Source: Phyllobates terribilis | Taxonomy: Eukaryota | Length of the DNA stretch: 64,000 bases | Reading direction: 5' to 3' | Assembly: GCF_046119375.1 (NCBI RefSeq) | Contig: NW_027362767.1 | Location: 421,290,001-421,354,000, forward strand | Shown: positions 1 through 50,411 of the stretch, in pieces | Numbering within the stretch: the first letter of the stretch is position 1 | Layout of the letters: the number at the start of each line of letters is the position of its first letter | Program-made: the position numbers and the translations under genes | Notes under the pieces: model-generated | Seen by the model: the letters and a program-made list of their open reading frames with translations, nothing else | What the model was told of the DNA's origin: nothing | Databases searched by the model: none

Positions 1-97
1 GGCTCCGGAGGGACCCTTTGAGTGTTTTAGTCTTTCTCATAATGTGATGCCACTCACGTGCCGGATTTAGGTATGACGGTAATTGTGTTATTCCCAG

Positions 98-170
98 GTT
101 GTACAATATCTCGTCAGGGAAGCAGGAGAAGGTTCTGAAGAGTTCACACAGTGGAGGAGCCTTGCTGAAG
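98..170 (+). CDS. WD40 gene exon ([24 protein letters not shown])
   Basis: ttcccag acceptor; AAG|gtaagc donor; WD40 blade sequence of the family. Confidence 0.88.
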
Positions 171-3100
171 GTAAGCGGTTGTCCTTTATCTACAGAAGGT
201 GACTCTACCCTGATAAAAATCATATTTCTGCTTCCCCCATGACGGCATCACGGAAAGAGGGGATCCGCCCTTCAAGGACAGGAAACCTACAGATAAAAGG
301 GTGGTATCTCTCTCCCTCATCAGTTGGTTTCCTGTCTGTGACGGGATCCTACAGTTCCGGAAGGAGGCATACCTGCGGGGTGCCTGAAGACTATCTTCGT
401 GGGATGCCAGGCCCCGCCAGTCCGATCCAGGCAGCGGGGAATCCCCTGCCTCGGCTGGTGCGGTGCCCTGATGCGCCACCGCTGGCATCCGTAGCCTTTA
501 GGGTGTGCGGGAGGGTGTCCAGACGAAGAGGACACGGCCTGTCGGGGCCGCTGAGGTGCTGTGCTGGACCCCCTGGTTGCGGCAGGTGGGAGCGCGGCAC
601 TGCCCGGCGGCGTTATTATGAACTTCCAGGATTGCCGTACGTGCGCGAGCGCGCCGGGCGCCTCCTGACGACCCGGCGCCGCAATGCATGACTGGGTAGC
701 CAGTCTGCGCAGGCGCAAGCATCCTCCCGCAGGTGCGGGGGAGGAGGGGGATGCCGGATCACCGCAGGCACTATGAGAGGTACTCCCAGTGCCTTAAAAG
801 ACAGCGGAGGATGCCAGGAAACTGCTTCTTAAAGCTCTGGCATGATGTCGGTAGGAAAAAAAAATATATATACAGTACAGACCAAAAGTTTGGACACACC
901 TTCTCATTTAAAGATTTTTCTGTATTTTCATGACTATGAAAATTCTACATTCACACTGAAGGCATCAAAACTATGAATTAACACATGTGGAATTATATAC
1001 TTAACAAAAAAGTGTGAAACAGCTGAAAATATGTCTTATATTCTAGGTTCTTCAGAGTAGCCACCTTTTTGCTTTGATGACTGCTTTGCACACTCTTGGC
1101 ATTCTCTTGATGAGCTTCAAGAGGTAGTCACTGGAAATGGTCTTCCAACAATCTTGAAGGAGTTCCCAGAGATGCTTAGCACTTGTTGGCCCTTTTGCCT
1201 TCACTCTGCGGTCCAGCTCACCCCAAACCATCTCGATTGGGTTCAGGTCTTGTGACTGTGGAGGCCAGGTCATCTGGCGTAGCACCCCATCACTCTCCTT
1301 CTTGGTCAAATAGCCCTTACACAGCCTGGAGGTGCGTTTGTGGTCATTGTCCTGTTGAAAAATAAATGATGGGCCAACTAAACGCAAACCGGATGGAATA
1401 GCATGCCGCTGCAAGATGCTGTGGTAGCCATGCTGGTTCAGTATGCCTTCAATTTTGAATAAATCCCCAACAGTGTCACGAGCAAAGAACCCCCACACCA
1501 TCACACCTCCTCCTCCATGCTTCACGGTGGGAACCAGGCATGTAGAGTCCATCCGTTCACCTTTTCTGCGTCGCACAAAGACACGGTGGTTGGAACCAAA
1601 GATCTCAAATTTGGACTCATCAGACCAAAGCACAGATTTCCACTGGTCTAATGTCCATTCCTTGTGTTCTTTATCCCAAACAAGTCTCTTCTGCTTGTTG
1701 CCTGTCCTTAGCAGTGGTTTCCTAGCAGCTATTTTACCATGAAGGCCTGCTGCACAAAGTCTCCTCTTAACAGTTGTTGTAGAGATGTGTCTGCTGCTAG
1801 AACTCTGTGTGGCATTGACCTGGTCTCTAATCTGAGCTGCTGTTAACCTGCGATTTCTGAGGCTGGTGACTCAGATAAACTTATCCTCAGAAGCAGAGGT
1901 GACTCTTGGTCTTCCTATCCTGGGGCGGTCCTCATGTGAGCCAGTTTCTTTGTAGCGCTTGATGGTTTTTGCAACTGCACTTGGGGACACTTTCAAAGTT
2001 TGCCCAATTTTTCAGACTGACTGACCTTCATTTCTTAAAGTAATGATGGCCACTCGTTTTTCTTTACTTAGCTGCTTTTTTTTTGCCATAATACAAATTC
2101 TAACAGTCTGTTCAGTAGGACTATCAGCTGTGTATCCACCTGACTTCTGCACAACACAATGGATGGTCCCAACCCCATTTTTAAGGCAAGAAATCCCACT
2201 TATTAAACCTGGCAGGGCACACCTGTGAAGTGAAAACCATTTCCGGTGACTACCTCTTCAAGCTCATCAAGAGAATGCCAAGAGTGTGCAAAGCAGTCAT
2301 CAAAGCAAAAGGTGGCTACTTTGAAGAACCTAGAATATCAGATATATTTTCAGTTGTTTCATACTTTTTTGTTAAGTATATAATTCCACATGTGTTAATT
2401 CATAGTTTTGATGCCTTCAGTGTGAATGTACAATTTTCATAGTCATCCCAACACAAAAAGAAGCCGGAAGGGTCGGGACACCATGACCGTAACAGTGGAA
2501 GCGGCTGCTCCGGCAGATCAGCGCAGCAAAGACTCCACCTCAGCATCTTCCAGGAGGCCTCGGTCTACAAAGATGGCTCCGCCTCCTGAACCGGTACCCG
2601 CTCTTCCGTCTGGTTGGTAAGTGATCTTCGTGAAAGTCCACTTTGTAACTAGCGGCCTCTCTCTCTCTCTCTCTCTTTTTGTCTCTCATTAGGGAAGAAA
2701 GAGCACGGGGAAAACAAAAAATTGGACCTGTGCACTATGCACAGAAGTCTTACCCACTACTTGGGATAAGAGACTCTGCAGCTCCTGCATTGAGCACACT
2801 ATATGCGAGGAAACCCCGAAATTTGCCTTTGAACTTAGAGACCTAATTAAATCGCAGGTCAAAGATACCATTAAATCCTTTCGGGGGGGGGGGGGGTGGT
2901 AAAAAGCTAAAAAAATCTAAAAACATATCCCCCCGAATAGCAGTTCTGAGAATGGCGTAGATTTGGACACTTCCGTTTCTTCATCTTCCTCTTCTTCGTC
3001 AACAGATAGAGGAGGACGGAGCCGTTTCCCTATCGAGGAAACAGCCTCATTAAGGCCGTCAGATCTACCATGGGGTTACCAGATCCCCGGCCCAAGACGT

Positions 3101-6100
3101 CTATCCAGGACATAATGTTCAGCTGTCTAGAGCAAAAAAAGAGGAGATCTTTTCCACTAAATGAGCAAGTTCATTCTTTAAGAAGGAGTGGAAAAGACCA
3201 GAGAGGAAGGGCCTCCTTTCCCCAAAGTGTAAGTACCAGTTTGATGACCCTGCATGTTCCTTTTGGGAGAAAGCTCCAAAACTGGAGGTTGCCAAAGCCT
3301 CAAAGAAATACTCCCTTCCATTTGAGGACATGGGCGTCTTAAAAGACCCCATGGATAAAAAAGCAGACTCCTTCCTGAAGGGTTCCTGGGAAGCCGCTGG
3401 GGAGGGGGGGGGGGTTAAAACCTGTGGTAGCTGCCACATGTACGGCCAGGTCATTAATGGTCTGGCTAGACCAGCTTGAAACACAACTGCGGCAGAAAAC
3501 ATCTAGAGAGACAATCCTTGAAACTATCCCGGTAATGAAAGGGGCAGCGGCCTTCCTAGCTGACGCCTCGGCGGACTCCGTCAGGTTAGGCGCTAGGGCG
3601 ACAGGGCTTGCTAATGCGGCCAGACGAGCCTTCTGGCTCAGATGTTGGCCCGGGGATCTACAGACAAAATCGAGATTGTGCTCCATCCCCTGTGAGGGCG
3701 AATTTCTATTCGGGCCCACCCTTGATGACATCTTAGAAAAAGCGGGGGACAATAAGAAGCGGTTCCCTATCCTGTCTAACACTACTTACAGAAAACCTTT
3801 TCGGAGCAAAAGGTTTATCCATAGAAAACCCCCTAAAGAGCAGGATAGGTGGGAAGACAGGAGAATAAAGAACAAAGGGTTCCTATTTAACAAACCCCTC
3901 AATGATAGCAGAAAGTCCTCCCAATGAGGATTTGCCCCGGGTGGGGGGAATTCTATCAGGCTTTCTCCCGGCCTGGGAATTAATATCAGACAGCTCATGG
4001 ATTCTGATCATAATACAATCGGGCCTGAAACTCCAATTCCTCACATTCCCTCAGCCAAACTTTTTCGTAACCCCCGAAAGGTCCTCAAACGAGGAGCAGC
4101 TGGCCTTGGAGCAGGAAATCCGGGGACTGGTAGGGAAGGTCCCGTGGGGGGAGGAAGGCAAGGGCTTTTATTCTCCGTTATTCCTAAGAAAAAAAACAGA
4201 TGGGGACGTACAGGACGATTGTAAACCTAAAAAAGCTGAACAAACTTTTGAAGGTGGAAGCCTACTAAATGGAAACCATAAAATCATCAGTAAAAATGCT
4301 GTTTCCCTATTGTTTCATGGCCGTCCTGGATTTAAAAGACTCTTATTATCACGTCCCGATACACAAAGACTACCGGAAGTTCCTCAGAGTAGCAGTTCCT
4401 ATAGGTGGAGTGGTCAAACACTATCAATATACGGCCCTCCCATTCGGCATCGCCATAGCCCCAAGGGTTTTCACCAAAATTATTGCAGACGTAATGGCTC
4501 GTCTAAGGGAACAGAACACCCTTGTCATCCCATACCTAGACGACTTCCTGGTAATAGGCAGCTCCTTCCTAAACTGCAAAACTCATCTTGGGAAGGTCAT
4601 AGATTCTTTGAGACGCTTAGGATGGCTTTTGAATCTGGAAAAATCCAAAACAGCACCGTGCCAGATACAGGAATGCCTAGGCATCATGCTGGATTCGGAA
4701 AGACAGGAGTGTCGTCTCCCCACAGGGAAAATTCACAAAATCATAGACCAGATATTGTGGGCAAAGTCCAACCCGTCTATGTCCCTACGGAAAGCCATGT
4801 CCCTTCTAGGCTCCCTGACAACATGTTTCCCGGCCGTCCAATGGGCTCAGATACATACCAGGATCCTACAGTGGGAAATCCTAGAGGCAGAAAAATCCCT
4901 AAAAGGGCATTTAGAAGGGCAGCTAACGTTATCTGCAGAAACGACACTTTCCCTGGAGTGGTGGGGGAACATAGACAATCTAGCCCGGGGTATTCCTTGG
5001 ACAATCCCTACACCTCAAATTCTGACCACAGATGCAAGTCCTGAGGACTGGGGGTCTCACCTCAACAACCTTGTAGCTCAGGGGGTCTGGACAGAATGCC
5101 TAAAGCTAGTTTCCTCAAACATGAAGGAGCTTCTAGCAGTAGAGCAGGCACTCCGGGAATTCATGCACATACTACAAGGCCACCACGTGAGGGTCTTCTC
5201 AGACAACTGAGTAGTAGTGGCATACCTGAACCACCAGGGGGGTACTCGGTCCCATTCCCTGATGCAGGCGACAGAGGTCATCTTTCACTTAACTGAGGAA
5301 AACTTACATTCCCTGTCAGCTCTACACATAAGAGGGATAGAAAATCTAACCGCAGACTTCCTGAGTCGGACACAGCTAAAGCAGGGCGAATGGGATTTAA
5401 ACCAGTCAGTTTTTCGTCAGATTGTACAAATGTGGGTACGTCCCTCCATAGATCTGTTTGCCAACAATCGAAACAAGAAAACACACACTTTCTGCTCCCT
5501 AGACCCCAAAGGAAACCCCATAGCTGTGGATGCCTTCATGATCCCATGGAGTTACCCTCTAGCTTACGCTTTTCCTCCGACCGCTCTGATTCCAGCTGTT
5601 CTGAGGAAAATCAGGGAAGAGAAAGCGAGAGTAATCTTGATAGCCCCCTTTTGACCAAAGAGGGCATGGTTTTCGTGGCTGAGGATGTTATCAATCTCCG
5701 ACCCATGGGTTCTTCCGGAGCTTCCGGACCTTCTTTCTCAGGGTCCGTTTCTCCATCCTCGGGCTTCAAACTTACACTTGACAGCCTGGAATTTGAGAGG
5801 GCTCTTCTGAAGGACAAGGGTTTCTCCCCAAATCTTATCACCACACTACTTCAAAGTAGGAAACCAGTGACCACCAAACTGTACGTGAAAACCTGGAAGA
5901 AATTCCTTTGTCTCAGGTTCCAGGTTGGGTGGGGAGGTTCCATTGACTGCTATCCTGGAATTTTTACAGAGGGGGTTGGAACAGGGTCTGGCCACAAGTA
6001 CCTTAAAAGTTCAAGTTGCAGCCCTGGGAGCGCTCTACAATTTTGATCTTGCTAGGGATAGATGGGTATCTAGGTTCATTAAAGCGTCATCCAGATCCCA

Positions 6101-9100
6101 ACCCATCCCGAAATACTACACCTTGGGATTTAAACTTGGTCCTTTCAGCTTTAACAGAGGCCCCTTTTGAACCTCTGTCGGAAGCGTCCCTAAAAATTCT
6201 TTCCCTCAAAACAGCGCTCTTAGTAGCTCTCACATCCGCACATAGGGCCTGAATATCACTAATCCTATCGGCAGGCCCCCCCTTCACTCAAATCTTGGAG
6301 GATAGGGTTACTCTGAAAACTGACCCTGCCTACCTGCCAAAAGTGGCGTCAAGATTCCACAGGTCCCAGGAAATCACCCTCCCTTCTTTCTGCCCCAACC
6401 CTAGGAACACGAAAGAGAGAGTCTTGCATACACTAGACGTCAGAAGGTGCCTAATCCGGTACCTAAAGCTTTCAGGGCCCTCGTAAGGGAAAGAAAGCTT
6501 CCAAGGGCACGCTGGCCAGGTGGATACGGGAGGCCATCATACTATCGTACTCCTCACGCGGGGAAGCTGCCCCGGAGAAACTGAAGGCCCACTCAACAAG
6601 AGCGGTAGCAGCCTCCTGGGTGGAGAAGGCCGGTGCTACAATAGAGCAGATATGTAGAGCAGCAACCTGGTCTTCCCCCCTCTACCTTCTTCAATCACTA
6701 CCGGCTAGATTTAACCTCTTCTTCAGACCTTACTTTCGGGAGAAGGGTTCTGGTAGCTGTGCTCCCCCCCCCCCCCTAATGAGTCACTTCTCTGTAATTC
6801 TCTCCGTGGTACCGTCATGAGGGAAGGAGAAAGACATAGTTACTTACCGGTAACAGGATTTCTCTGAGCCCATGATGGCACCCGTACATTCCCTCCCTTC
6901 ACGTGTGGGTGCACACACTTATTAGTTACCCGTTGTAGCCACGTGGTGTTTCTGGAAATTTTGTGTTACTAACCTGGTGGTCCTCTCATGCTCTGTAAAC
7001 AACTGATGCGGGAGAGAGGCGCCGCCCTTTTATCTGTAGGTTTCCTGTCCTTGAAGGGCAGATCCCCTCTCTCAGGTGGTGCCGTCATGGGCTCTGAGAA
7101 ATTCCGTTACCGGTAAGTAACTACATCTTTTTCCACTGTTATTTTCCCAAAATCTTCCTTTGTTACATTGATAATTAGGCTGCACTATGGGTGTGGCCAA
7201 GCCATTTAAGGCTTCTTCCCATATACATGTCTTATGGCCTTCTCTACACGTCTTGTTTGACAGCACCATCTCCACTGAAATCTTACTCCATTCACAAGAG
7301 CTCCGACACCACGCACAACGTCCGTTCTCCTGGAGTCCTGTTGACTGCTGGTACTCTTAAGTACGGAGCAAGATTTCAGTGCAAGCAAGATGGGTGGAGA
7401 CATGTACAAGAGAAGCTGCACTGAATTGCTTGGCCACACCCAAGGTGCACCGAGCACCAAATTGACATTAACCCAGCACTTCTGGACGATTCAATGCCCC
7501 CCCCCACCCCCATCCCTTCTGTGCATTTCCGGATACGGACGATCATTTCCCATCTTTAATCTTCAAGGTACAAATGGATCCATCGGGGAGATTCTTTGCT
7601 ACGAGCTGCTCCAACAAGAACCTCTCCATCTTCGATTTGCAAACCGGGGAATGTGTCGCAACGATGTACGGACACTCGGGTCGGTGTAACTTATCTGTCG
7701 TATGGTCCATTACCCGGTCTGTATCCGTATACAGAGTACAGGCTGCTCTGTGTGTCTGTATTCTGCTGACGGATTCAGAATGGAAAGTAGTTTAATATTC
7801 CCATCAGTGGCCGTTAGAAGTGATCATGGTCTTCTCTTCCAGATATCGTCACTGACATGAAGTTTACCCGCGACTGCAGAAGACTGATCACGGTGTCTGG
7901 AGACAGGTCTGTTGCCATTAATGTGGTCATCGGGAGCCTTTCTCCTTCCTGTTCTAGCAGACACTGCCGGACGAAAGTGGAAACTTGGCAAAGCTATAGT
8001 ATTTAGCACAAGGATTCCCAGGACCCTGGTATTTGGGTCTTAGTGGTAGTCCACGGCTGCTGGAACAAAGCCTTCAGAGCCTCCTGGTTCCCGCAGCATC
8101 CGCTGTTCTGATTAGCATGCATGCATCGCACCACTACTTAATGGTATTGTGGGGCCTGCTAATCAGACGAATTGCTGGGAATCTTGCAGATAGTAGGAAG
8201 TTTGTTGTACTTTGGTCCGGTGGCTGCTCGGTCAGGGTCCTGCAGAACAATTAGTGAAACCACCACTGTCCAGTGTCCCAGTTGGTCTTTAGTATATCTC
8301 TCTATAAAGCCTCTGGGCCCAAAAAGTATGTTTAAAAAAAAAAAAGTTAATAAGGCTGTGTGCCCACTATGCTTTTTTAAAGTGTTTCCGCAGCGGAAAC
8401 ACTTAAAAAACGCTTGGTAGAAGGTCTGCCATGTTCCCCAATGATAATCCGCATGTGCTGTGCACATGCTGCGGAAATTTCCGCTGCAGATTATCATTAC
8501 GGAAAAATCCGCAGCATTACCAATTATTTTGCGGAATCGCGGCATTTTCGCCGCCATTGACTTGCACTGGAACGCATGTCATCCGCATCACTGCATCTGC
8601 AGATGCGGATTCCATGCTTTACAATGTGCAGATGGTACCCGGGTTTGGAGAAGAGGAGACTCTCCTCCAGACCCGNNNNNNNNNNNNNNNNNNNNNNNNN
8701 NNNNNNNNNNNNNNNNNNNNNNNNNNNNNNNNNNNNNNNNNNNNNNNNNNNNNNNNNNNNNNNNNNNNNNNNNNNNNNNNNNNNNNNNNNNNNNNNNNNN
8801 NNNNNNNNNNNNNCCCCCGGTGTCCTTAGCGATGCGTCTTGGCTTGCCGGCAGCTCGCGATGGTCTAAAAAGGACCTGCCATGACATCATTTAGTCATGT
8901 GACGGGTCACGCGACCGCTGACGTCGGCGGTCGCGTGACCCGTCATATGACTAAATGACGTCATGGCAGGTCCTTTCAGTCCACCACGAGCTGCCGATAA
9001 GCCAAGACGCATCAGATATGGACACCGGGGGCCATCAGAAGCTAAGTATAATGTGTATTTTTTATTTTATTCTTTTTTTTTACAGGTACTATGGTACCCG

Positions 9101-12100: not shown

Positions 12101-15100
12101 TTTACCCACAAAATATACAGTATTAACCCCCCTATGCATAAGTGATAAATGTATGAGAGCGGAGGGCCGACCACAGATGATAAGGGCGTAGGGACCCAAA
12201 GTCTCCTGTGTGAATGTAACAGGAGTGTGCGTGCCGGACCACCGCTCTATACGCTTCTATGGTCTGGTAGTGTGCGTGCTGGATCACCTCTATATACACT
12301 TCTATGGACAGGTATTGTGTGTGCCGGACCACCGCTCTATACACTTCTATGGACTGGTATTGTGCGTGCCGGACCACTTCTCTATACACTTCTATGGACT
12401 GGTATTGTGCATGCTGGACCACGCTCTATACACTTCTATGGACTGGTATTGTGCGTGCCGGACCGCTTCTCTATACACTTCTATGGACTGGTATTGTGCG
12501 TGCTGGACCACGCTCTATACACTTCTATGGACTGGTATTGTGCGTGCCGGACCACCGCTCTATACACTTCTATGGACTGGTATTGTGTGTGCCGGACCAC
12601 CGCTCTATACACTTCTATGGACTGGTATTGTGCGTGCCGGACCACTTCTCTATACACTTCTATGGACTGGTATTGTGCATGCTGGACCACGCTCTATACA
12701 CTTCTATGGACTGGTATTGTGCGTGCCGGACCACTTCTCTATACACTTCTATGGACTGGTATTGTGCGTGTCGGACCGCTTCTCTATACACTTCTATGGA
12801 CTGGTATTGTGCGTGCTGGACCACGCTCTATACACTTCTATGGACTGGTATTGTGCGTGCCGGACCACTTCTCTATACACTTCTATGGACTGGTATTGTG
12901 CGTGTCGGACCACCGCTCTATACACTTCTATGGACTGGTATTGTGCGTGCTGGACCACGCTCTATACACTTCAATGGACTGGTATTGTGTGCGCTGGACC
13001 GCTTCTCTATACACTTCTATGGACTGGTATTGTGTGCGCCGGACCGCTTCTCTATACAATTCTATGGACTGGTATTGTGTGTGCCGGACCGCTTGTCTAT
13101 ACACTTCTATGGACTGGTATTGTGTACGCCGGACCGCTTCTCTATACACTTCTATGCACTGGTATTGTGCGTGTCGGACCACCGCTCTATACACTTCTAT
13201 GGACTGGTATTGTGCATGCTGGACCACTGCTCTATACACTTCTATGGACTGGTATTGTGCATGTCGGACCACCGCTCTATACACTTCTATGGACTGGTAT
13301 TGTGCATACTGGACCACCGCTCTATACACTTCTATGGACTGGTATTGTGCGTGCCGGACCACTTCTCTATACACTTCTATGGACTGGTATTGTGCGTGTC
13401 GGACCGCTTCTCTATACACTTCTATGGACTGGTATTGTGCGTGCTGGACCACGCTCTATGGACTGGTATTGTGCGTGCCGGACCACTTCTCTATACACTT
13501 CTATGGACTGGTATTGTGCGTGCTGGACCACGCTCTATACACTTATATGGACTGGTATTGTGTGCGCCGGACCGCTTCTCTATACACTTCTATGGACTGG
13601 TATTGTGTGCGCCGGACCGCTTTTCTATACACTTCTATGGACTGGTATTGTGTGCGCCGGACCGCTTCTCTATACACTTCTATGGACTGGTATTGTGCGT
13701 GTCGGACCACCGCTCTATACACTTCTATGGACTGGTATTGTGCATGCTGGACCACTGCTCTATACACTTCTATGGACTGGTATTGTGCGTGTCGGACCAC
13801 CGCTCTATACACTTCTATGGACTGGTATTGTGCATACTGGACCACCGCTCTATACACTTCTATGGACTGGTATTGTGCGTGCCGGACCACTTCTCTATAC
13901 ACTTCTATGGACTGGTATTGTGCGTGTCGGACCGCTTCTCTATACACTTCTATGGACTGGTATTGTGCGTGCTGGACCACGCTCTATACACTTCTATGGA
14001 CTGGTATTGTGCGTGTCGGACCACTTCTCTATACACTTCTATGGACTGGTATTGTGCGTGCTGGACCACGCTCTATACACTTCTATGGACTGGTATTGTG
14101 TGCGCCGGACCGCTTCTCTATACACTTCTATGGACTGGTATTGTGTGCGCCGGACCGCTTTTCTATACACTTCTATGGACTGGTATTGTGCGTGTCGGAC
14201 CACCGCTCTATACACTTCTATGGACTGGTATTGTGCATGCTGGACCACTGCTCTATACACTTCTATGGACTGGTATTGTGCGTGTCGGACCACCGCTCTA
14301 TACACTTCTATGGACTGGTATTGTGCATGCTGGACCACTGCTCTATACACTTCTATGGACTGGTATTGTGCGTGTCGGACCACCGCTCTATACACTTCTA
14401 TGGACTGGTATTGTGCATACTGGACCACCGCTCTATACACTTCTATGGACTGGTATTGTGCGTGCCGGACCACTTCTCTATACACTTCTATGGACTGGTA
14501 TTGTGCGTGTCGGACCGCTTCTCTATACACTTCTATGGACTGGTATTGTGCGTGCTGGACCACGCTCTATACACTTCTATGGACTGGTATTGTGCGTGCC
14601 GGACCACTTCTCTATACACTTCTATGGACTGGTATTGTGCGTGCTGGACCACGCTCTATACACTTATATGGACTGGTATTGTGTGCGCCGGACCGCTTCT
14701 CTATACACTTCTATGGACTGGTATTGTGTGCGCCGGACCGCTTTTCTATACACTTCTATGGACTGGTATTGTGCGTGTCGGACCACCGCTCTATACACTT
14801 CTATGGACTGGTATTGTGCATGCTGGACCACTGCTCTATACACTTCTATGGACTGGTATTGTGCGTGTCGGACCACCGCTCTATACACTTCTATGGACTG
14901 GTATTGTGCATGCTGGACCACTGCTCTATACACTTCTATGGACTGGTATTGTGCGTGTCGGACCACCGCTCTATACACTTCTATGGACTGGTATTGTGCA
15001 TACTGGACCACCGCTCTATACACTTCTATGGACTGGTATTGTGCGTGCCGGACCACTTCTCTATACACTTCTATGGACTGGTATTGTGCGTGTCGGACCA

Positions 15101-18100
15101 CTTCTCTATACACTTCTATGGACTGGTATTGTGCGTGCTGGACCACGCTCTATACACTTCTATGGACTGGTATTGTGTGCGCCGGACCGCTTCTCTATAC
15201 ACTTCTATGGACTGGTATTGTGTGCGCCGGACCGCTTTTCTATACACTTCTATGGACTGGTATTGTGCGTGTCGGACCACCGCTCTATACACTTCTATGG
15301 ACTGGTATTGTGCATGCTGGACCACTGCTCTATACACTTCTATGGACTGGTATTGTGCGTGTCGGACCACCGCTCTATACACTTCTATGGACTGGTATTG
15401 TGCATGCTGGACCACTGCTCTATACACTTCTATGGACTGGTATTGTGCGTGTCGGACCACCGCTCTATACACTTCTATGGACTGGTATTGTGCATACTGG
15501 ACCACCGCTCTATACACTTCTATGGACTGGTATTGTGCGTGCCGGACCACTTCTCTATACACTTCTATGGACTGGTATTGTGCGTGTCGGACCGCTTCTC
15601 TATACACTTCTATGGACTGGTATTGTGCGTGCTGGACCACGCTCTATACACTTCTATGGACTGGTATTGTGCGTGCCGGACCACTTCTCTATACACTTCT
15701 ATGGACTGGTATTGTGCGTGCTGGACCACGCTCTATACACTTATATGGACTGGTATTGTGTGCGCCGGACCGCTTCTCTATACACTTCTATGGACTGGTA
15801 TTGTGTGCGCCGGACCGCTTTTCTATACACTTCTATGGACTGGTATTGTGTGCGCCGGACCGCTTCTCTATACACTTCTATGGACTGGTATTGTGCGTGT
15901 CGGACCACCGCTCTATACACTTCTATGGACTGGTATTGTGCATGCTGGACCACTGCTCTATACACTTCTATGGACTGGTATTGTGCGTGTCGGACCACCG
16001 CTCTATACACTTCTATGGACTGGTATTGTGCATACTGGACCATCGCTCGATACACTTCTATGGACTGGTATTGTGCGTGTCGGACCACCGCTCTATACAC
16101 TTCTATGGACTGGTATTGTGCGTGTCGGACCGCTTCTCTATACACTTCTGTGGACTGGTATTGTGCGTGCTGGACCACGCTCTATACACTTCTATGTACT
16201 GGTATTGTGCGTGCCGGCCCACTGCTCCGTTCATCTGTCTGCCCCAGCACATAGTGGTGGTTTTGCAGCGATTTCCTACTGTGCATGCGATCACAGCTAG
16301 ACCCCCGATCTTCCGGCTCCCACCTCCTGGTCCCGGCCCCCGTCAGGGTGCGACCCCTGAATACTCCAGTCCGGCTTTGATTCTCAGAACTTTTCTCCTC
16401 TCTTCAGGTCGAGGATGGAAACAACTTTGTGGACAACAGGACGTTCATCACCGAGGCGGCGTCTGCATTAGACGAGACAGACGTTCAGTCCCAGTCCTCA
16501 GAGTCCAACGGTATCTACTACCCGTCGTCTCTGCACGTGACCCTGCAGGAAGAAAGGTAACCGATGAGTATCTGGGCTGTAGTCTGTACTGTGCCCCTCT
16601 GGTATCAAATATTATGTCCCCGTCTTCAAGTAGTCCCGGCGGGCTGTCCCCCTTCCCCTTGCGACCACTCGCTTCCCCCTGCTGTTCATCTACGTGCAGG
16701 CGCAGAGTAAGAGAGGCAGAGACATACAAAAAGTGCTGCTGCTACCTAGTAAGTGTTTATCTTAGCCAAGCAATAGATTCACAGCTACACTTCTCAGTAC
16801 TGCTGTTTGATACTAAAAAATGGCAGCATGTATGGTATCATACAGCAGTACTTATCATTGAATCCAGCACTGCGGTGAGAAATACTCAGTACTAAACAGC
16901 AGCATACCAGGTATAATACAGCAGTACTGAGCAATGTACCTGTGAATCCAGCACTGGGGTGAGAAATGCTTACCTTCTGTGCTGCTGTTTTGTAGTGCGT
17001 ATTTCTCACCCCAGGGATGGATTCACAGCTGCACTGTGATATATTTTCCATGCTGCTATTTTGTAGTATATCATATCACAGTGTAGCTGTGAATCCATCC
17101 CTGGGATGAAAAATACTCACTACGAAACGGCAGCATGGAAGGTAAGCATTTCTCACCCCCAGTGCTGGATTCACAGCTACATTACTTAGTACTGCTGTAT
17201 TATACCTTCCATGCTGCTGTTTTGTAGTCAGTATTTCTCACCCCAGTGCTGGATTCACTGCTAAGTACTGCTGTATGATACTACAAAATGGCAGCATGTA
17301 AGGCATCATACAGCAGTACTGAGCAGTATAGCTGTGAATCCATCCCTGGGGTGATTTAATTCTCGCTACAAAATAGCAGCATGGAAGGTAAGCATTTCTC
17401 ACCCCCAGTGCTGGATTCACAGCTACACTGCTCAGTACTGCTGTATAGTATCCTTCATGTGCTAATTAGAGGCAGGAATCCCTCATGTCTATGTGTGCTG
17501 TGTATGGGAGACACCATAGCAGTTAGTCTCCATCCACCAGCTCAAAGAGACCTGAAAAGTAGAGACGGGAAAAACTGGTGAAAAGTCAAAGATACAAGTC
17601 ATATAATGGCTAGAAATGGTGTTATTCCTCTTGTGCACATAGGACGGCTTATTCTGATCAGTCACCTAAATGGACAGTTACTTTAATGTTATATAATATG
17701 TTGGGTTTTTTTCTTCTATTTTTCAGTTATTTTTCTATTGAAGAACGGACTTTTGACAAGGGCAATGCCGCACTCATGGATGGGCTGTTAATCGGCTGTG
17801 ACCCAGGTAACTGCCGACACTACTGATAACTATTTCCTCTCATCTTGTCTATCTTACACTATATCTGGAGTTATCGCTGAGTATGTACAAGGTACATTTG
17901 TATTCATATTGTGTTATTAACTATGACTAAACAGCTTCTAATCTTAATCAGCCAGACATCTAGATTTGTTAAGCCAAGAGAAATACCCTATTTTTTGTGT
18001 TGACTTGTGAATGTATATGTATTTCTGTGGCTGGTCAAGAAGGACAGACCAGTATTTGTATAACAATGATTGTTGTCTTCTCTTGGTTCTGAAACAATGA

Positions 18101-24100: not shown

Positions 24101-27100
24101 GTCCTCCTTCGGATTTATCCCTCGCCTGAAGAAAAAGGCCAAATCTGTCAATAACCTATCGAAGATGTCTAAAAAGGAGGAGATGAAGCCCAAAGGTGGA
24201 GATGTCCAAAAGAACGTCCCTGCCCTGGAAATGCAGAAAAGAAGAAACTCCTCATCGGTCGATCGGCCACTGGAGATCCAGGACTTCCCCAGAAGAGCGT
24301 CCATAGCAGAACTTCCAAGCCACGCAAGTGCCAGTCTCCATACAAGCAGCCTTGTCATGGAAGAGGCCAACATCCCAAGAAGTGGCCCGTCCTCCCCAGA
24401 AGCGACTTCATGTAGCTGTCCTGGAGAACCAGGTAAAGAAGGACGACTCCAGTGAAAAACTTTAGAATTTCTCCTCTTCTGTTCCCCTTGTCATGCTCAA
24501 AAGTGTAAAAGCCATCCCACCGCGAAAAGGTGTACCCATCGTGATGGTTCCTAACTCAAGTTACTCACCACGTGATGTGCCTGCAGACCTCAAAATAGAC
24601 TGGGGCAGAACAGGACCTGGGCCCGGCTGTCTCACACCTGCCAATGGAAAGCCATATAGACAAGTTGCAGAACTCAAAAGGGCGGACCACGTCCCTATGG
24701 CCTGCTGGCACATAGGTGAGATAGTAGAGCTGAGACCATCCTGACTGGGTACACCTTGTCGCGGTGGGATGACTTTTTCACTTGATATTTACATGTATTA
24801 TTACTATTTACTTACTGCAGGGTATATATTCATTTGTTTTTATTCTAGATTTCATCTAGTTGAAGGGATAAAATTGCAAAGTGCTTGTAAAAACTAGCAA
24901 CGTTGCAATTCACATCTCCGTTCTTAAGAACAGAAGGATTTTTTCACTTTATAGTTTGATTGTTGCCTTGGTTATCGGCCACCTCTGCGGTTTATTCGTG
25001 GTGGACAGTTTACTAGGCAAGAAGCACGCGTTTGTAAGTGCTGCTCTGGAGCTGCGTGGAGGAGTGGTATGCTCCTAGAGAAAGAAGATGATGATGATAC
25101 TTTTTTTTTTCTCAAACCCCTTTAAAAGAATAATGCATACTAGTTGCACCCGGAGGACCCCTTTTAATGAGGGCTTGAACTTTAGATTAGGTTTATACAA
25201 GTTGATACATGCCATTCAGTGACCTAAACCATAATCTGCCTCTGGCCTTTGTCAGATGTGGAGGTCCTGGCGAGCCGTTGTGAGCAAGTAGTGGAGGAGC
25301 TTCACGACATCTTCCAAAAGACTCTACAGACCTACAAAGAGGTAAGTAATGGAATGTTTCTATGGGAGGACCACCCCGTCTAAAATCCTATTTTTCACTG
25401 CAATTTGAAAGGTTATCTCCAGAGGTTTTCTCTGTCTTATACATTAATATCTTTTAAGAAATTGACTCTGGGTACAGGATGCCGTCACCAAGAGGCTGAC
25501 ACGAAAAATGTAAAAATGTTGTCCCACCTATACAGGCACTGAGCTACGCCAGTTTTCTGCTTTTTTTCTATATTTGTTCTTTGTTGGGGTCTGTATCCAT
25601 GTTATTCCCACTAATGCAGGATGCAAGGTGCCTCCGCTGCTCCTCTGGCACTCAGAAACATAAGGGTCAGCCAGGTTCCCATCTGCTCCCGACCAGTGCC
25701 CCCTCACACTAGAGAGGCACACCGGCTGCTCTCTACTGGGAGCTGACTACAAGGATCCTAGGGAAATAAATGTGACTCCACCAGCTCTCAAGACCCATCC
25801 AAACAGCCCTTAGTAGCCCCTCTTACAAGTGCTTGTGCCTTGTAAAGCCCTCAGCTACATCCATACTCTGGCAATCAATTTGGGTCTTGCTGAATTCTTT
25901 AGCAGCGGACCTGTTCTGCACTTGGACCGTAACACTACGTTCTCTTGTGGTCAGTCTGATCCTCTGTGTAAAGTCCCACACAACTCCTTTTAAGGCCTTT
26001 GCTTCGCATTCTGAGTTTGAGGAGGTCATCCAAAAAGAATGGAAGACCCCAGACAAGACCTCCTTCTCTTGTGATAAACATTCAAACCTCATGTATCCCC
26101 TTCGAGAAGAGATTATTTCTAAGTGTTTCCAAGTCTCCAGCAGTGGTTCCTCTTGGATTTACCCTCCTAGTTTTTCATCTGGCCAAGATGCCTACTAATC
26201 CCATGGTGGATGCAGCCTCCTGTTGAAGACCTGAGAGGTCTTCCTTTGAGACAACAGACTTGGCTTTTGGGCAGACTGGTTCTGCCAACTCCACCATGAT
26301 GGCCTTTCTGCCACAACACAGGAAAAACAGGAGGTCTGTTCTCTTATACTGAGAAGTACTTTTTTTGCCCTTTTCTGCGACTTATCTCCTGCACCTCGGC
26401 TACGGTGGTTGCCATCTGCAGATCTGCCTTCGTCAAACGCCTATCGGCAGTAAAAACTTATAACAGCTCTTTAACAGCTTGGTCTTTTTGAAGGTTCCAT
26501 TCTTTTCTGGCCCAAGTGAATGAGAATATATCTGAAGCCTTAAACTAGAGTTATTCGCCCCAGACCAGGACCCGTTTCGTTGGCCCTTCCGGGAAAAAAC
26601 AAACTCCGGTTCCATTCTCTTCACAACTTTGCAAACCCTCAGTCCTCTCAACATAACGTGCAGCAGGAAGCAAATAAGAAAGATTCCTTCATTTTGTTTC
26701 CTCTCCCATCCATCCATGAAAAGGTGGTCATTCCCTTACCACCAGGCTAAGGATTCATGTTTTTTTAACTGGCCACGGATCATTTCACTCTCCCTTCCTG
26801 ATCCCCCACCAAGATAAGGTGGTGCTTAGTCCAGCTCCATCCTTTCTGTCTATAGTGGTTTTCCCCTTCTACTTAAATGAGGGTACAGTTTTGCCCCAGA
26901 TCTGCCCATCCCCATCTCGTCCTTTTGAACATTCCCTATGCAATCTTGCTGTTTCTTCTGCCTTAAACATATCCCTGTCCCTCAACTCCCCATCTGCCAT
27001 TTGGACTCACTCTTCATTGTTCCAGAACATCCGTGGAATGGTCTTCCTGGGCTATGTGTCATTCAGGCTCTGTTTTCCAAGTGTGCAAGGTGATAGTTGC

Positions 27101-33116: not shown

Positions 33117-34064
33117 TTAAGTAAAATTTTTTGTTCTTTCACAGAATTTCCACTTTTGTCGTAGGGCTGATTTTACGTCTTTATTTTTTAGGCTGTAGAT
33201 AAGTGGGTTCAACATGGGAGCAATGGCCGTGTTAAACAGAGAGAAGATTAAGTTGGAACCTATGTTCTTCCCGGAAACTGTTACGATATATTGTAAGACG
33301 ATAGAAGAGTAGAAGATCCCAACTACCGTGATGTGCGAGGAACATGTGTAGAAGGCTTTACGTCTGCCGGCATTCGAGCTTATTCTTAAAATGCATGCGA
33401 TGATAAAAACATAGGACATTATAGTCAGGAAGAGTAAAATAAAAATGTTTACATTGCCAAAAATAAGAATGTAAAGGTCCAAAGTTGAAGTGTCACTACA
33501 TGTGATGTCCCGGATGGGCAATACGTCACAAAAATAATGATCGATTTCCTTGGAAATGTAACAAGTGAACCTTGAAATGAACACAAGAGTTGGAACCATC
33601 TCTATGAACCCGAAACCCCAACTGATCGACGCCAGCAGACCACAGAGTCTCCGACTCATGACCGTGTGATAATGTAGAGGCCTACAGATGGCTACGTAGC
33701 GATCAAAACTCATGGCGGCCAAAATTGAGAGCTCGTTACTGGTTAATGAGCAAAAAATATATACCTGGCTCATACAGGCCAAGGTAGAAACCATGTGGTC
33801 TTGCGTTATGAAAATGACGAAAATGTTGTGTAGAGTTGTGGTGGAACTGGATATATCTATCATGGACAAGTTGGAGAGGAAGAAGTACATGGGTGTGTGA
33901 AGGTGAAGATCAAGGCAGACCAGTAGTATAATAGTCAGGTTTCCAATAAGGGAGATAAGATAGATGAGAAGAACCAGAAGGAAGAGGAAAACTTGTAGTT
34001 CAGGTACATCCGAGACTCCTTTAAGTCTAAAGCCTTCTATCGTGGTCTGGTTTATGGAACTCAT
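33117..34064 (-). CDS. Olfactory receptor (class II-like), intact, 315 aa
   Basis: N-terminal NQT sequon; LHTPMYFFLSNLS, MSFDRYVAICRPLHY, KAFYTCSSH, PMLNPLIYSLKN; splice acceptor just upstream at 34086. Confidence 0.96.
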   Translation of the reverse strand: MSSINQTTIEGFRLKGVSDVPELQVFLFLLVLLIYLISLIGNLTIILLVCLDLHLHTPMYFFLSNLSMIDISSSTTTLHNIFVIFITQDHMVSTLACMSQVYIFCSLTSNELSILAAMSFDRYVAICRPLHYHTVMSRRLCGLLASISWGFGFIEMVPTLVFISRFTCYISKEIDHYFCDVLPIRDITCSDTSTLDLYILIFGNVNIFILLFLTIMSYVFIIACILRISSNAGRRKAFYTCSSHITVVGIFYSSIVLQYIVTVSGKNIGSNLIFSLFNTAIAPMLNPLIYSLKNKDVKSALRQKWKFCERTKNFT

Positions 34065-41205: not shown

Positions 41206-41688
41206 TCTCAGGGTCTTGTTATGCCTTCTGGGTTAATCAAAGCACCAGCAGTCTATCAAAATTTTATGAATGATATATTTTCTGATATTATTGTGGTTTA
41301 CCTTGATAGTGTTTTTTACCTTATCTGGATTCACACTATAAATATGTCTGTTTTGTTTTGCCTAAACTCGGGGAAAATTCTTTGTTTTCTAAATTGGAGA
41401 GTATTTTTTTTTTCTGCTTGAGATATCGTTCCTGGGGTTCATTGTATCTGCTAAAAGGTTTAAGATGGATTCTGGGAAGGGAGGTGCAAGCTGTAACTGA
41501 TTGGGTTCTACCTCGTGACCTTTAAAGCATTGCAACGTTTTTTAGGATCCTCCAATTATAGAAACTTTCCCCTTCTCCCATGACAGCACCACCTGAGAGG
41601 GTATCTGCCCACCAAGGAGAGGAACCTACTGAATAATAAGGCGGTACCTCTCTTCCGTATCAGTTTTGCTTCCTGTTCTTGATGGGAG

Positions 41689-42827: not shown

Positions 42828-44183
42828 TACCTGATCGTGGGGTTGGGATCACGAGATCGGTGCAGCCTGGAGACCGAAGAAGCAGCAGATGGGCCCTCTG
42901 GTTTCAGCCCCATCTTGCTTGTGCCTGGGTCTGTTTGCGGGGGAAGAGAGGGCGCCTTCCCGTGGACCTCTCCCGCGTGCGCCAGGTGCTGGGGCTGCGC
43001 ACACATGGAGGTTCGTGGCTGAGCACGCCGGCAGGCAGGCCTTCCGGGTCTGCACACACACAGGGTCGCGTCGCGCCCTGTGACGTAGCAGCCTGGAAGC
43101 CCGGGTCTGCACATGCGCGGGGTGCGATTCAGTAATCTAACGCATCCCCCTGTATGCAAGCGCGCCGGGGGCCGCTGGGTCTGCGCACGAGTTGCAGATC
43201 TTGCTGCGAAGCACACCAGCCGGCTGTATGTAAAGGGAGGGGGGGGGGGGGGGGTATGCTGCCGTTTAACCCGGAAAGGGGAGAGGCCCAAAGGGGGTGG
43301 AGCCTCCATATGCTCTATAGGGATGGGAAGCTGGCAAGATGGCGGTGTCTGCATCCCCTTCATTATAGGTGAGGAGCTGCTATCACCGCAGCAGCCGCCT
43401 GAGCAATGTAAGCAGATCAAGCAGCATGTAAAACCTGTCCAGCAACGTCGGGAGTCTTCCCATCATCAGAGCCACAGTAGTGGGAGCCGTACAAGCGCCG
43501 GCAGAACCGGTCAGAAGAAATCGGCTCGCGAGTCTACCTCCTCCTGACGGGATTGTTCATGTGAACGGCAACCACCGTCTCCGGTACCCTAGTCTGAACA
43601 GCGGTGTGGTGAGTGATCTTCGTGAAAGTTCACCTTAGTAATGTGCTCCTCTGTTTTCTCTTTTTTCCGTTTCTTTCTGTCTTTGGTAGGAACCTAAAAA
43701 GAGTAGTTCTAAGAACAACAATAAGGAGTGTGCGTTATGTAGAGTTAGCCTTCCCAGCTCCCTTGCTAAAAACCTTTGCTCAGGTTGCATCCAAAAGACT
43801 ATAGCAGAGGAGTCCCCTAGCTTTGCTGTGGATCTGAAAACCTTAATCCATATGGAAGTCAGGGATTCCTTAAAGAACTTGACTTCACGTAAGAAGATAA
43901 AGCATAGACGGGTTACCTCTGACTCAGAAGAATCGCTAGATTCCTGTATCGCAAGAGAATCCCTTTCCCCCTCTGACCTCTCGTCATCGTCTTCATCAGA
44001 ATCTTTAGATGATGGAGGGGTTAGACCATGTTTTTCAGTAGACAATACAGCGAGACTAGTCAAGGCTATTAGAGCGACCATGGGTATTGCCGATGCCAAG
44101 GCCCCCAGAACGGTTCAGGATATCATGTTTGGGGGCTTAGATCAAAAGAAGAGATGCACATTCCCAGTCAATGAGAGGATTAA

Positions 44184-44880
44184 GGCTATGCGCCCACGTA
44201 GCAGATTTTATGCAGAGCGTTTTTGCCTCTCTGGCAGAAAAAAAAAATGCATGCAGATTTAAATGCGTTTTTTTTTTTTTTTTCAAGCACTTTTCCAAGC
44301 GATCTTGAGCAATTGGCATGGACCATCACCTGACCACTGACGTCAGCGGTCGCGTGACCATCAGCTGACTACATGACGTCACTGCAGGTCCTGCCAGTAC
44401 ACCGCGGGACGCCGAAGAGAGACTACGCCGCCGGGAGAAGACCGGGGGCCGCCGGAGAGGTGAATATACAGGTTTTTTTTTTTTGTTGTTGTGTGTGTTT
44501 TGTTTTTATTTATTTTATTTTTTTTTTCACCGCGTGGTAGCCGGGATGAAGAGGAGTTGTAGTCTCCTCTTCATCCCGGGTACCACACGCACCGCAATTA
44601 TGCTGCAAATTTGCGGCCATTGAATTTAATTGAAATGCAGCAAATCCACATACCTGCGGGTTTGCTGCGTTTCAATGTTACTCAATGGCCGTGAATTAGC
44701 AGCGTAATCGCGGTAGAAATGGTCATGCTGCGTATTGCATCTCAATGCGAATTCGGCACGCTAATTAGCGCATCATGTGCACAGCACATCCGAATTCGCA
44801 TTGCTTTGCATGGCAGACTGTTTTACAAGCGATTTCGCGGCCGTAAAAATGCCACAAAAACGCTACGTGGGCACATGGCC
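44184..44880. mobile_element. PIF/Harbinger-type MITE in DIRS-B gag
   Basis: TIR GGC(T/C)ATG(C/T)GCCCACGTAGC; TAA duplication; removing it restores the frame PVNERIKTLIDRERKG. Confidence 0.9.
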
Positions 44881-47121
44881 TAAAACTCTTATAGATAGGG
44901 AAAGGAAGGGCCAGCTGCCTTCATCTTCTAAGCGGAGGTACCTTTTTGAAGAGGAGGACGCAGCTAAGTGGGACAAAACCCCGACAATTGATGTGGCCAT
45001 CTCGAAATCCTCAGATCCCCACTACCATTCGAGGATTTGGGGGCCCTCAAATATCAGCTCGATTAAAAAAGCGGAGTCTTTTCTAAAACAGACCTGGGAG
45101 TCCTCAGCAGGGGCTCTGAAACTGGCAGTGACGGCCACCTGCACCGCCAGGTCAATGATGATCTGGCTGCAGCAATTAGAGGACCAGATTAAGGGGAACG
45201 TCCCTAGACATAAAATTCTGTCGGGTCTTCCTCTTATGCAGGGGGTGGCTGCATTTCTTGCGGCTGCATCGGCAGATTCAGTTAGGCTGGCTGCCAGATC
45301 AGCTAACCTTCCAATGCAGCCCATATGGCGTTATGGCTCAAGAGCTGGCCAGGGGATGTGCAGTCTAAATCAAAACTCTGCTCAATCCCATGTGAAGGGG
45401 ACTTTCTTTTCGGAAAAGCCTTAGATGACATCTTGGATAAGGCCGCAGACTAACATGGCTTTCCTAATGTATCTGTTCCCCCGTTAGAAGACCTCCTTTC
45501 GGAAAAGGAAATATATTCGGAGTAAATTTTTCCCGAGACCAAGGTAGTTGGAGAGACAAGAAGCCGAATAATAGAGGCTTCATATTCAGGGGTCCATCTT
45601 CCGATAGTAAAAAAAGCCCCTAAGTGATGAACCTCCCCAGGTAGGAGGAAGGTTGTCCCACTTCCTTCCCGCCTGGGAGAAGATCTCATCCAGCGCCTGG
45701 ATTTTAGGGATAATCAGGAGAGGGCTGAGATTGGAGTTAAAAACCATTCCCAGAGACATCGTCAGGATTTCAGCCCCCAGAGGCCTGAGAGAGCAAATAG
45801 CCCTACAGCAGGAAGTACTCACTCTGGTCGAGAAGGGGGTTTTAATAGAAAGCCAATACCCAAGCAAGGGAGAGGGTTTTATTCAGCTCTCTTCCTAATA
45901 AAGAAGCCGGATGGCTCCTTCAGAACCATTGTCAACTTGAAGAAGCTAAATGACCACTTAACTTACAGACTATCAAAGATGGAATCGATAAGATCGGCTA
46001 TAAAGATGTTGTTCCCAGAGTTTTATATGTGCGTCCTTGATTGTGAAGGACGCCTACTCCCATGTCCTAATCTTTCCAGGACAACAACAGTATTTGGGAA
46101 TAGCTGTACATATTGACAAGCATATAAAGCATTTTCAGTTTGCAGCTCTTCTCTTTGGCATCTCCATGGCTCCGAGGGTTTTCACAAAGATTATCCTGGA
46201 AGTCACGGCACAAGGGAGAAGGATATTCTAGTCATCCCTTACCTGGACGACTTTTTGGTGGTGGGCAGATCAAAAGAACTCTGCGCACTGGCTCTGGTGG
46301 AGGTCACAGCCAGTCTAAATGGATTGGGATGGATCCTAAATTTAGAAAAATCGAAACTAGAACAGTCGAAGGTTCAGTACTTTTTCTAGACTTGTCTTCT
46401 GCCAGAGGACAAGAAATTGAAGATCAATTCCCTCATCTCACGCGTAATCAGGAATCCATCCATGACTCTGAGGAGTGCAATGTCTCTACTGGGTATGATG
46501 ACATCCTGTATCCCAGTAGTACAGTGGGCCCAGCTTCATTCCAGAGGTCTACAGCAGGAGATTCTGACAGCTGACAAGCAGCTGAGAGGTCACCTGGACG
46601 GAAGAATATCTTTCAAGTTCGGTTATCAGCTCGCTGGATTGGTGGATGAATCCGGATTCATCCAATCTCTGGGGGTTCCTTGGTCATTCCAGGTAACAGA
46701 TACGATTACAACAGACGCAAGCGCAGAAGGTTGGGGAGCTCACTTGAGAGACCATTCAATACAGGGACTCTGGTCAAACAGAGAGACGGGTCTCTCCTCC
46801 AACATGAGGGAGCTGTTGGCAGTCAGAAACGCAGTAGTAGAGTTAAAGTCTCAGCTTTAGGGTCAACACATTAGGATAATGTCAGACAATCGAACAACAG
46901 TCGCCTATATCAATCGTCAGTGGAGAACAAGATCCTTCAGTTTGCGCATCTATTTACGCTCTCGGCGCTGCATATGAGAGGAGAATGTAAGAGCCGATTT
47001 TCTAAGTCGTCACGTTTTGAAATAAGGGGAATGGGAATTGAATCCAGCGATTATTCCAGCAGATTGTTCGCAAACAGATCTATTTGAGGTTGCCCCCATC
47101 GGTAAACAAACGCAATTGGAA

Positions 47122-49165: not shown

Positions 49166-50411
49166 CATCTCATTCCAGGATGCTAGGAAAAGGCTTAAGG
49201 TTACGAGGGGGACCATAGCTAGATGGGTCAGCGACACCATTGGTTTAGCGTACTCCTCTAGCCATCTGCCAGTTCCAGAGAACCTGAAGGCCCACTTCAC
49301 CAGGTCTGTAGCTGCTTCCTGGACTGAGAAGGCGGATGTGCCCATCGACATCATATGTAAGGCGGCAACTTGGTCATCCCCCTCTACATTCAACAAGCAT
49401 TACCATCTTGAACTTTCCTCTTCTACTGATCTGTCCTTTGGGAGGAAGGTGTTGCAAGCGGTGATCCCTCCCTCTGGTGTCTGATCTCTAAATCTTTCAG
49501 GTGGTGCTGTCATGGGAGAAGGGGGGATCCTAGTTACTTACCGGTAACTGAATTTTACAGAGCCCATGATAGAACCCTATTAATTCCCTCCCCTTTATCA
49601 CTTATGGTGTGCACTACTATGGGTGTTTTACAAAGGAATGTTTTGGTGGTAGTTATGTACTAACATATTTTTCGGAGGCCCTCTCATGCTCTGAACCTAA
49701 AACTGATGCGGAAGAGAAGTACCGCCTTCTTATTCAGTAGGTTCCTGTCCTTGGTGGGTGGATACCCTCTCTCAGGTGGTGCTGTCATGGGCTCTGTAAA
49801 ATCCCATTACCGGTAAGTAACTAGGATCTCTTAACTTTTTGTTTTTTTTTACAGATCGTTAAACAGTTTTACTGATCTCACAAGTAAGGGGGGCAGATCT
49901 TAACGTTTTGGTCGCCAGATACTATTGGAGCGTTTGGTAAATTGAAAGTATTTCATGGCCGCTCCAGTTTTAATCTAACCTCCTCTCCAGAAACCATTAA
50001 TCATAGAGGTGGATGCCTCTGAGGTCTGGGTGATATGGGCTGTATTATATCAATGTTCCTAAACTTTGACCAACTTGTGGCCATGTGTTTTTTTTCTTTA
50101 GGAAATTTTCTTTTGCTGGGGTTCAACAATTGTTAAGGCTGACGCTTTATCACGCAGTCTTGATTCAGTTTCTCCCCCAGAACCTTCATCCTCCATTGTT
50201 CCTCAGAACATTGTGGTATCCTCGGAGTTGGAAGCAGAGATCTGTGAAGTCCAGTTGTTGGCTCCTTCCGCTTCTCCACGGTCAAAATTATTTGTGCCTG
50301 TGTATCTAAGATTACGTTTGTTGCAGGAGTTTCATGATTCTGTCTTGAGTGGTCATCCTGGGATCACAGCTACGTGGAAATGTATTGATACTCTTTTAGT
50401 GGCCATCCATG

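Follow-up and report, generated by a model that had tools for sequence, protein, structure and literature searches.

DIRS1-like retrotransposons of Xenopus have terminal inverted repeats, an internal complementary region, an ORF1 with a LAP2alpha domain, a reverse transcriptase (RT)/RNase H and a tyrosine recombinase, as described in parts of PMC9210276, PMC3266345 and PMC4495291. A full-text keyword search of PMC9210276 and PMC3266345 returned neither 'intron' nor 'splic'. Penelope-like elements keep introns after retrotransposition; the best described of these, in the relevant passages of PMC8557442, lie in the 5' UTR over the promoter, and the elements encode a GIY-YIG nuclease. For the Ty1/Copia element EVD, excerpts of PMC5580714 report that spliced RNA makes Gag while full-length unspliced RNA dominates, that Gag ends through splicing, which is linked to early termination, and that U1 binding has a second role. 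The Rous sarcoma virus (RSV) regulator lets unspliced RNA accumulate by means of a structured decoy 5' splice site, which represses the true donor (PMC3082916, in part). No natural DIRS gag intron was found in the literature searched, which comprised literature searches and keyword look-ups in PMC7192593, PMC9210276, PMC3266345, PMC3783388, PMC6681497, PMC4157794, PMC5718144, PMC9341512, PMC12477816 and the Chlamydomonas v6 preprint.

The elements analysed here share the architecture of the Xenopus elements, including an ORF1 with LAP2alpha. Unlike the Xenopus elements as described in those excerpts, their gag has two exons, and the intron between them contains a weak true donor, D1, and a strong unused donor, D2. 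It differs from the Penelope introns in that it interrupts gag coding sequence, in an element with a recombinase. The elements resemble EVD in the presumed production of Gag from spliced RNA and in the dominance of unspliced RNA. In contrast to EVD, splicing joins two Gag exons, and the spliced RNA is full-length and is copied about 5% of the time. The conserved motif at D2 differs from the RSV regulator in its size and spacing, being about 26 nt long, 20–29 nt from the true donor and 29–35 nt from the predicted branch. The presence of a strong unused 5' splice site suggests that D2 could act like the RSV decoy, with inhibition as its putative effect and any SR-protein-binding part as hypothetical. 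To our knowledge, DIRS gene expression and template choice have been little studied outside Dictyostelium.

The window, a stretch of 64,000 nt from the Phyllobates terribilis genome, contains two such elements, copies A and B. An inverted-arm search of the window identified both terminal inverted repeats and an internal complementary region in each. Positions 4269–5207 of copy A match the Pfam domains RVT_1 (9e-17) and RT_RNaseH, both of which are also found in a young relative. The latter has a LAP2alpha domain in ORF1 (E 3.8e-20) and a Phage_integrase match (E 5.6e-5) that is weaker than the curated cut-off; the one short copy A fragment scanned gave no Pfam match to a tyrosine recombinase. 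No methyltransferase was matched after RNase H at E 0.05 on the 687-aa pol frame, the C-terminal motifs of which presumably resemble such a domain. Three long frames matched only LAP2alpha, RT/RNase H and integrase in Pfam, with no GIY-YIG endonuclease joined to RT in one frame as in Penelope-like elements. Copies A and B are DIRS1-like retrotransposons, about 71–73% alike where they can be aligned, and the closest named homologues of Gag come from dendrobatid and other frogs. Copy A lies in sense orientation within an intron of a MABP1/WDR62-type WD40 gene (window positions 97–170 and 2693), and host transcripts might use its acceptor. The features of both copies are collected in the table.

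Table. Features of the two DIRS1-like copies in the window (window coordinates).
Feature	Position	Strand	Details
Copy A, left inverted terminal repeat	224..345 (approximate)	+	arms 253-329 / 6997-7073, 90% complementary
Copy A, Tc1 transposon inserted in the element	875..2459	-	arms 917-1145 / 2232-2459; Pfam HTH_Tnp_Tc3_2, DDE_3
Copy A, gag exon 1 remnant	2460..2593	+	exon start missing at Tc1 right edge
Copy A, true gag intron	2594..2692	+	99 nt, GTACCC...TTAG; weak donor D1; relatives L048, L051, L060 and L091 joined exactly here
Copy A, strong unused donor D2 and 26-nt hairpin motif	2617..2645	+	0 joins
Copy A, predicted branch motif	2646..2649	+	A at 2648; 32 nt from D2, 55 nt from D1; motif search
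Copy A, gag exon 2	2693..3927	+	CxxC-CxxC, LAP2alpha-type (domain match in relatives); frameshifted
Copy A, RT-RNase H region, decayed	3869..5817	+	Pfam
Copy A, tyrosine recombinase core region, decayed	5790..6780 (approximate)	+	alignment to relatives
Copy A, internal complementary region and right terminal repeat	6826..7134	+	arms 6826-6882 / 7078-7134
Copy B, left terminal repeat	41565..41670	+	arms 41595-41667 / 49699-49771 and 41569-41599 / 49494-49524
Copy B, gag exon 1	43340..43583	+	no start codon left; one in-frame stop
Copy B, true gag intron	43584..43689	+	106 nt; intron-less relatives joined exactly here
Copy B, strong unused donor D2 and hairpin motif	43609..43635	+	predicted branch A at 43641, 33 nt away
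Copy B, gag exon 2	43690..45627	+	insertion at ~44190-44880
Copy B, internal complementary region and right terminal repeat	49494..49830	+	arms 49526-49576 / 49778-49828

Also in the window are a third DIRS gag-like fragment (25776–26740), which is more decayed and lacks the intron region, a second Tc1 copy (55216–56600) related to the one in copy A (875–2459), and long tandem arrays at about 12150–16300 and 27100–29900. Another repeat is inserted three times in copy B, in both orientations (41680–42820, 47122–47703 and 48163–49160). Two open frames, 33117–34082 on the minus strand and 61527–62486 on the plus strand, we take from their motifs to be olfactory receptor-like. The right termini of A (7106–7120) and B (49806–49820) carry a perfect donor-like CCG/GTAAGT on the sense strand, within the repeat that pairs with the internal complementary region.

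The preliminary description had placed the gag intron at 2617–2692 (76 nt) in copy A and 43609–43689 (81 nt) in copy B, with GTRAGT, here D2, as its donor. The sequences, lengths and coordinates of these segments were given correctly, and in both copies the CxxC-CxxC gag frame opens at the first base past the AG. Use of the proposed donors, however, was not confirmed: in every copy that has lost the intron precisely, the joint lies 23 nt (A) or 25 nt (B) upstream of them, at D1. A frame survey of 30 motif-matched loci and both window copies showed that a Q/S-rich exon-1 frame, starting with MSDQE, MSEQE or MSEEP in most, ends at a conserved CCG/GTAC, which is D1. GTAY occupies the D1 position in 74 of 76 copies, and the intron has the GT...AG ends and pyrimidine tract of a U2-type spliceosomal intron. 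Across copies, D1 lies 20–29 nt upstream of D2 (23 nt in A, 25 nt in B). Relative to the exon-1 frame, D1 is in phase 0 in the window copies and their subfamilies, and the phase of D2 is not constant. B-type copies close exon 1 ahead of D2 by a TAG six bases after D1, a stop that copy B itself retains.

The preliminary description had ascribed a phase mismatch in copy A, and the 1-nt indel needed to repair it, to decay; D1 is met in phase 0, and the mismatch is a family-wide trait of D2. ATG 2573 is an internal methionine in copy A, from which the frame reads MAPPPEP to D1 with no indel, and the true start codon was lost at the edge of the Tc1 insertion. Exon 1 of its relatives starts further upstream, with MSDQE. 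The upstream frame of copy B does lack an ATG, as had been noted, its start codon having been lost. Removal of the D1 intron yields a single continuous, ATG-started gag frame in natural intron-less copies, and these precise losses uphold the proposal that a spliceosomal intron interrupts gag. We hold with very high confidence that this coding intron, with its corrected boundaries, is real.

D2 as the gag donor is refuted at the DNA level. The idea that the intron starts at GTRAGT (2617 and 43609) and that the frame mismatch reflects decay draws on the better match of D2 to U1, and it retains next to no credibility, given that D2 is used by none of the 21 pattern-matched joined copies, that the 20–29 nt offset from D1 leaves the phase of D2 inconstant and that exon 1 of B-type copies stops before reaching it. 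The junctions expected from it, 2616–2693 and 43608–43690, are likewise absent from those 21 copies and from the RNA joints listed. Splicing at D2 to create a start codon, as the ATG/G of some subfamilies might indicate, was also rejected; the triplet is mostly TTG, GTG, GCG, CTG or GGG, and no D2 join was found.

The search for intron-less genomic copies that the preliminary description had proposed was productive. The genome patterns allowed a gap of 0–30 nt at the joint, hence D2 joins were also detectable. Joined and intron-retaining copies numbered 3 and 73 for A, 4 and 64 for B, and 14 and 272 for the young subfamily B2, whose retaining copies were counted with an acceptor-side pattern. 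Pooled, 21 of 430 copies are intron-less (4.9%, 95% interval 3.1–7.2%), all with gap 0 at D1, and the loss rate is alike in the three subfamilies (A 3.9%, B 5.9%, B2 4.9%). When exon 2 of each copy was used as the query, the segment was missing from 3/30 of the best matches for A and 3/30 for B (counting the window copy itself), always with the joint at D1. B and B2 together have 25 copies in which D1+2 is not T; 24 of these join precisely to the gag acceptor, and the remaining one carries a point mutation. No A-type copy with a base other than T at D2+2 was found by genome pattern, a search that an acceptor with T as its second base would escape.

Of 722 copies selected through their left terminal repeat, the first 100 were classified: 76 copies retain the intron, 19 are without the region, one has a partial deletion, three are precise losses (one of subfamily C, two of B2) and one joins D1 to a downstream AG. 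Altogether, the exact D1 join occurs in 31 distinct loci from four subfamilies. The possibility that these copies arose by reverse transcriptase jumps or DNA deletions at a short GG microhomology, and not by splicing, is very improbable. Although the joint overlaps by 1–2 nt and template-jump-like deletions are frequent in these copies, an identical GT-AG boundary recurs at all 31 loci despite differing intron lengths and acceptors, and the joins are always in frame. The other 10 deletion junctions examined in the left-repeat sample are not recurrent, and several lie at homopolymers or short overlaps. At one locus (L152:940), D1 is joined about 850 nt downstream, after CAGCAG and off by about one base; this is possibly a copy of a cryptically spliced RNA. 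Use of one donor with several acceptors was rejected, as 24 of the 25 non-GT D1 copies use the gag acceptor and none uses another, with L152 as the sole, imprecise exception.

Intron-less copies were made through the DIRS cycle. Of 12 intron-less copies retrieved at length, 5 show recognisable DIRS termini on both sides, the left repeat is kept in 12 of 14 B2 intron-less copies, and one natural intron-less copy has a 546-codon open frame across the joint. Where the end motif was seen, right ends are T-rich like those of intron-bearing copies. An origin as LINE-type processed copies was discarded on the grounds that DIRS ends are present and that the right ends are T-rich, not poly(A).

Trees of intron-less versus intron-bearing copies were built for A (4 vs 27), B (5 vs 27, with L095 excluded for less than 200 nt of homology) and B2 (14 vs 26). 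A separate subfamily tree, which includes three copies without a called acceptor and six long branches that are mis-anchored or decayed, was used for subfamilies only. A single clade of intron-less copies was rejected in each case (p-AU A 2.5e-32, B 1.8e-8, B2 1e-110). As the intron-less copies are scattered through the trees, the losses are recurrent and independent. The B2 tree is poorly resolved, its well-supported branches forcing only 2 changes, and small intron-less B2 lineages may exist. No wholly intron-less subfamily was found among those sampled.

About 95% of the genomic copies derive from unspliced RNA, which bears out the earlier proposal that this RNA is the replication template. 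As the only template it was too strong a claim, because spliced RNA too gives rise to full-ended copies, in about 5% of cases; the template is usually unspliced RNA. By calculation, at a loss of 5% per round, only 8% of lineages would still carry a neutral intron after 50 rounds. This low expected survival, together with the intron in every subfamily sampled, points to a function maintained by selection, under an assumed number of rounds. The star-like trees count against this, since they mean that most intron-bearing copies are dead ends as well.

RNA data came from assembled contigs of four runs of one study. Their RNA nature is presumed, and it is supported by a host GT..AG joint at 7678–7842 in all four runs. 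Contigs are strandless, lose rare forms and may represent passengers of host pre-mRNA. For the young B2 subfamily, contigs with depths of 128–268 continue without a break across D1 and D2 and on into the intron in 4/4 runs, and no D1 or D2 joint was listed in the four runs with a full-length young copy as reference. In these samples, element RNA is therefore predominantly unspliced. A single contig, of depth 3.2 and from 1/4 runs, joins 2594 to 2709 of copy A (among 15 of 29 joints listed); the 15 letters in between resemble the start of exon 2, which makes this a D1 join. This contig could stem from an intron-less genomic copy.

Around the unused donor, conservation is pronounced. The preliminary description had found the donor side better conserved than its flanks, and this holds: over the 26 nt from D2, A and B are 0.88 identical, compared with 0.47 in exon 1 and 0.53 in exon 2. 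In 11 representatives picked by terminal repeat and not by motif, mean identity over these 26 nt is 0.85, against 0.52–0.61 in the exon ends and the rest of the intron; a set partly picked by the motif gave 0.92. The window contains the shared motif twice, where 100 shuffles predict 0.00 occurrences, and its exact form has 212 matches in the 10.6-Gb genome, compared with 0 for the reversed control.

Predicted U1 pairing is far stronger at D2 (about -10 kcal/mol) than at D1 (about -4.3 kcal/mol). D2 lies in a predicted hairpin in 20 of 20 representatives, in 18 of which D1 is the more accessible donor. The hairpin is weak, with z-scores from -0.2 to -3.4, and 15 or fewer of 300 shuffles fold as well in only 4 of 14 cases; the whole intron folds no better than shuffles. 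A longer outer stem, considered for A, is absent from other subfamilies and was dropped. The predicted branch, taken as the first TNAY after the hairpin, lies 29–35 nt from D2 and 52–60 nt from D1, with one degenerate family as an exception and no such motif in 2 of the 20 representatives. A donor-to-branch minimum of about 50 nt is reported in the available part of PMC6692369, where a distance of 35 nt abolished assembly on E1A. With D2 below this minimum, its position would explain why the stronger site is not used, and we infer that D2 is too close to the branch point to splice. The loop is conserved like the stem; one alignment of this motif disregarded row L199. A U1 decoy alone leaves this loop conservation unexplained, which points to a protein-binding role too and would be compatible with a packaging function.

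L124, L192 and L198 form a degenerate family that keeps D2, the hairpin and the acceptor, with D1 altered and no CxxC frame, and that is likely non-autonomous. The unspliced frame stops 1–11 codons past D1 in most subfamilies, and it extends far into or through the intron in three representatives, L187, L016 and L124. B2 copies (L218–L225) have an intronic ATG in frame with exon 2 via a CAG acceptor, if the length of the CT repeat fits. The annotated protein P0070 starts at this ATG, and most other subfamilies have a TAG at the acceptor.

Taken as a whole, a gag intron spliced from the weak D1, retained in about 95% of copies and likely restrained by the D2 hairpin as a decoy, is the reading we consider probable. 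Removal of the D1 intron joins gag into one frame, and the spliced RNA would serve as the Gag mRNA, because unspliced RNA stops soon after D1 in most subfamilies. U1 bound at D2, at its short distance from the predicted branch, could not splice and would hinder the loading of U2. By restraining splicing at D1, the D2 decoy would keep most RNA unspliced and available as the replication template. Selection would then keep the intron, as elements that lose it appear to have founded no lasting subfamilies.

The chief competitor, which is compatible with a decoy and to which we give a minor but real chance, assigns the 26-nt motif, just inside the intron, mainly a role in packaging or Gag binding, by which unspliced RNA would be selected for copying instead of making up most of the RNA. 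Stem and loop are equally conserved, with an identity of 0.85 that extends past the donor hexamer, exon 2 codes for the CxxC-CxxC motif, and the signal would sit just 3' of a used donor, the position that packaging signals have in retroviruses. It has to contend with copies that are without the motif and are still made with both ends, and with RNA contigs so largely unspliced in appearance that little selection would be needed. D2 might instead be a working donor for another downstream acceptor, that of pol or the recombinase, in RNAs that are rarely copied. This would account for a near-perfect donor kept in all subfamilies, and the recombinase frame has its first methionine far downstream, with acceptor-like AGs ahead of the core. 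We regard it as unlikely, since none of the A-type copies has lost the T at D2+2 (a count that covers A only and passes over acceptors with T as second base), no D2 join occurs among the 100 terminal-repeat copies and no D2 joint was listed in the four runs for the full-length young copy.

Slightly less probable again is a DNA-level element, such as an internal promoter or a protein site in the form of an imperfect palindrome, with incidental donor letters. The motif is indeed an imperfect inverted repeat with weak folding energies, and a Penelope intron overlaps an internal promoter (PMC8557442, in the passages on that intron). Retention of GTRAGT with either A or G at +3, a B2 insertion that extends the stem over the donor, and the narrow range of spacings from D2 to D1 and to the branch motif all speak against it. 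Beyond the decoy reading that we prefer, we tentatively consider a retrovirus-style switch within about 100 nt, in which a hairpin-masked decoy would throttle the weak gag donor and Gag would bind the hairpin; this is a speculation that we think more likely wrong than right. If true, one motif would both limit Gag synthesis and mark unspliced RNA for copying, and the constant 5% of intron-less copies would be a fossil record of a splicing leak.

Further splice-like sites lie downstream of gag. A donor-like site follows the gag stop (3920–3945 and 45625–45650), and an acceptor-like TCTCAG/G (5730–5745) precedes the recombinase core in A and C types; no joint between the two was listed in the RNA contigs. 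In young copies, gag and the long recombinase frame that comes after its stop share one reading frame, and pol opens within the 3' end of gag.

Annotated proteins of other frogs show the same join before CxxC, with PPPEP-GKKS, NPQP-GRKS and HQP-AKRT as examples. Two contig-derived proteins read through an intron-like stretch at this place (P/V...L/VS...LSLFFPQ). Contig-derived Gag proteins from other sources (P0021, P0022 and P0042) read through, or start in, an intron-like pyrimidine stretch before CxxC. A metagenome scan returned no related locus. We treat an intron outside this genome as a lead only. The annotated models may represent intron-less copies or may have been spliced in annotation. 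These DIRS elements account for many frog genes annotated as 'LAP2 alpha-like', and descriptions of frog DIRS gag based on ORF finders overlook the Q/S-rich first exon. The elements offer exact boundaries for a DIRS coding intron, a measurement of how often it is lost, and a candidate control element of 26 nt.
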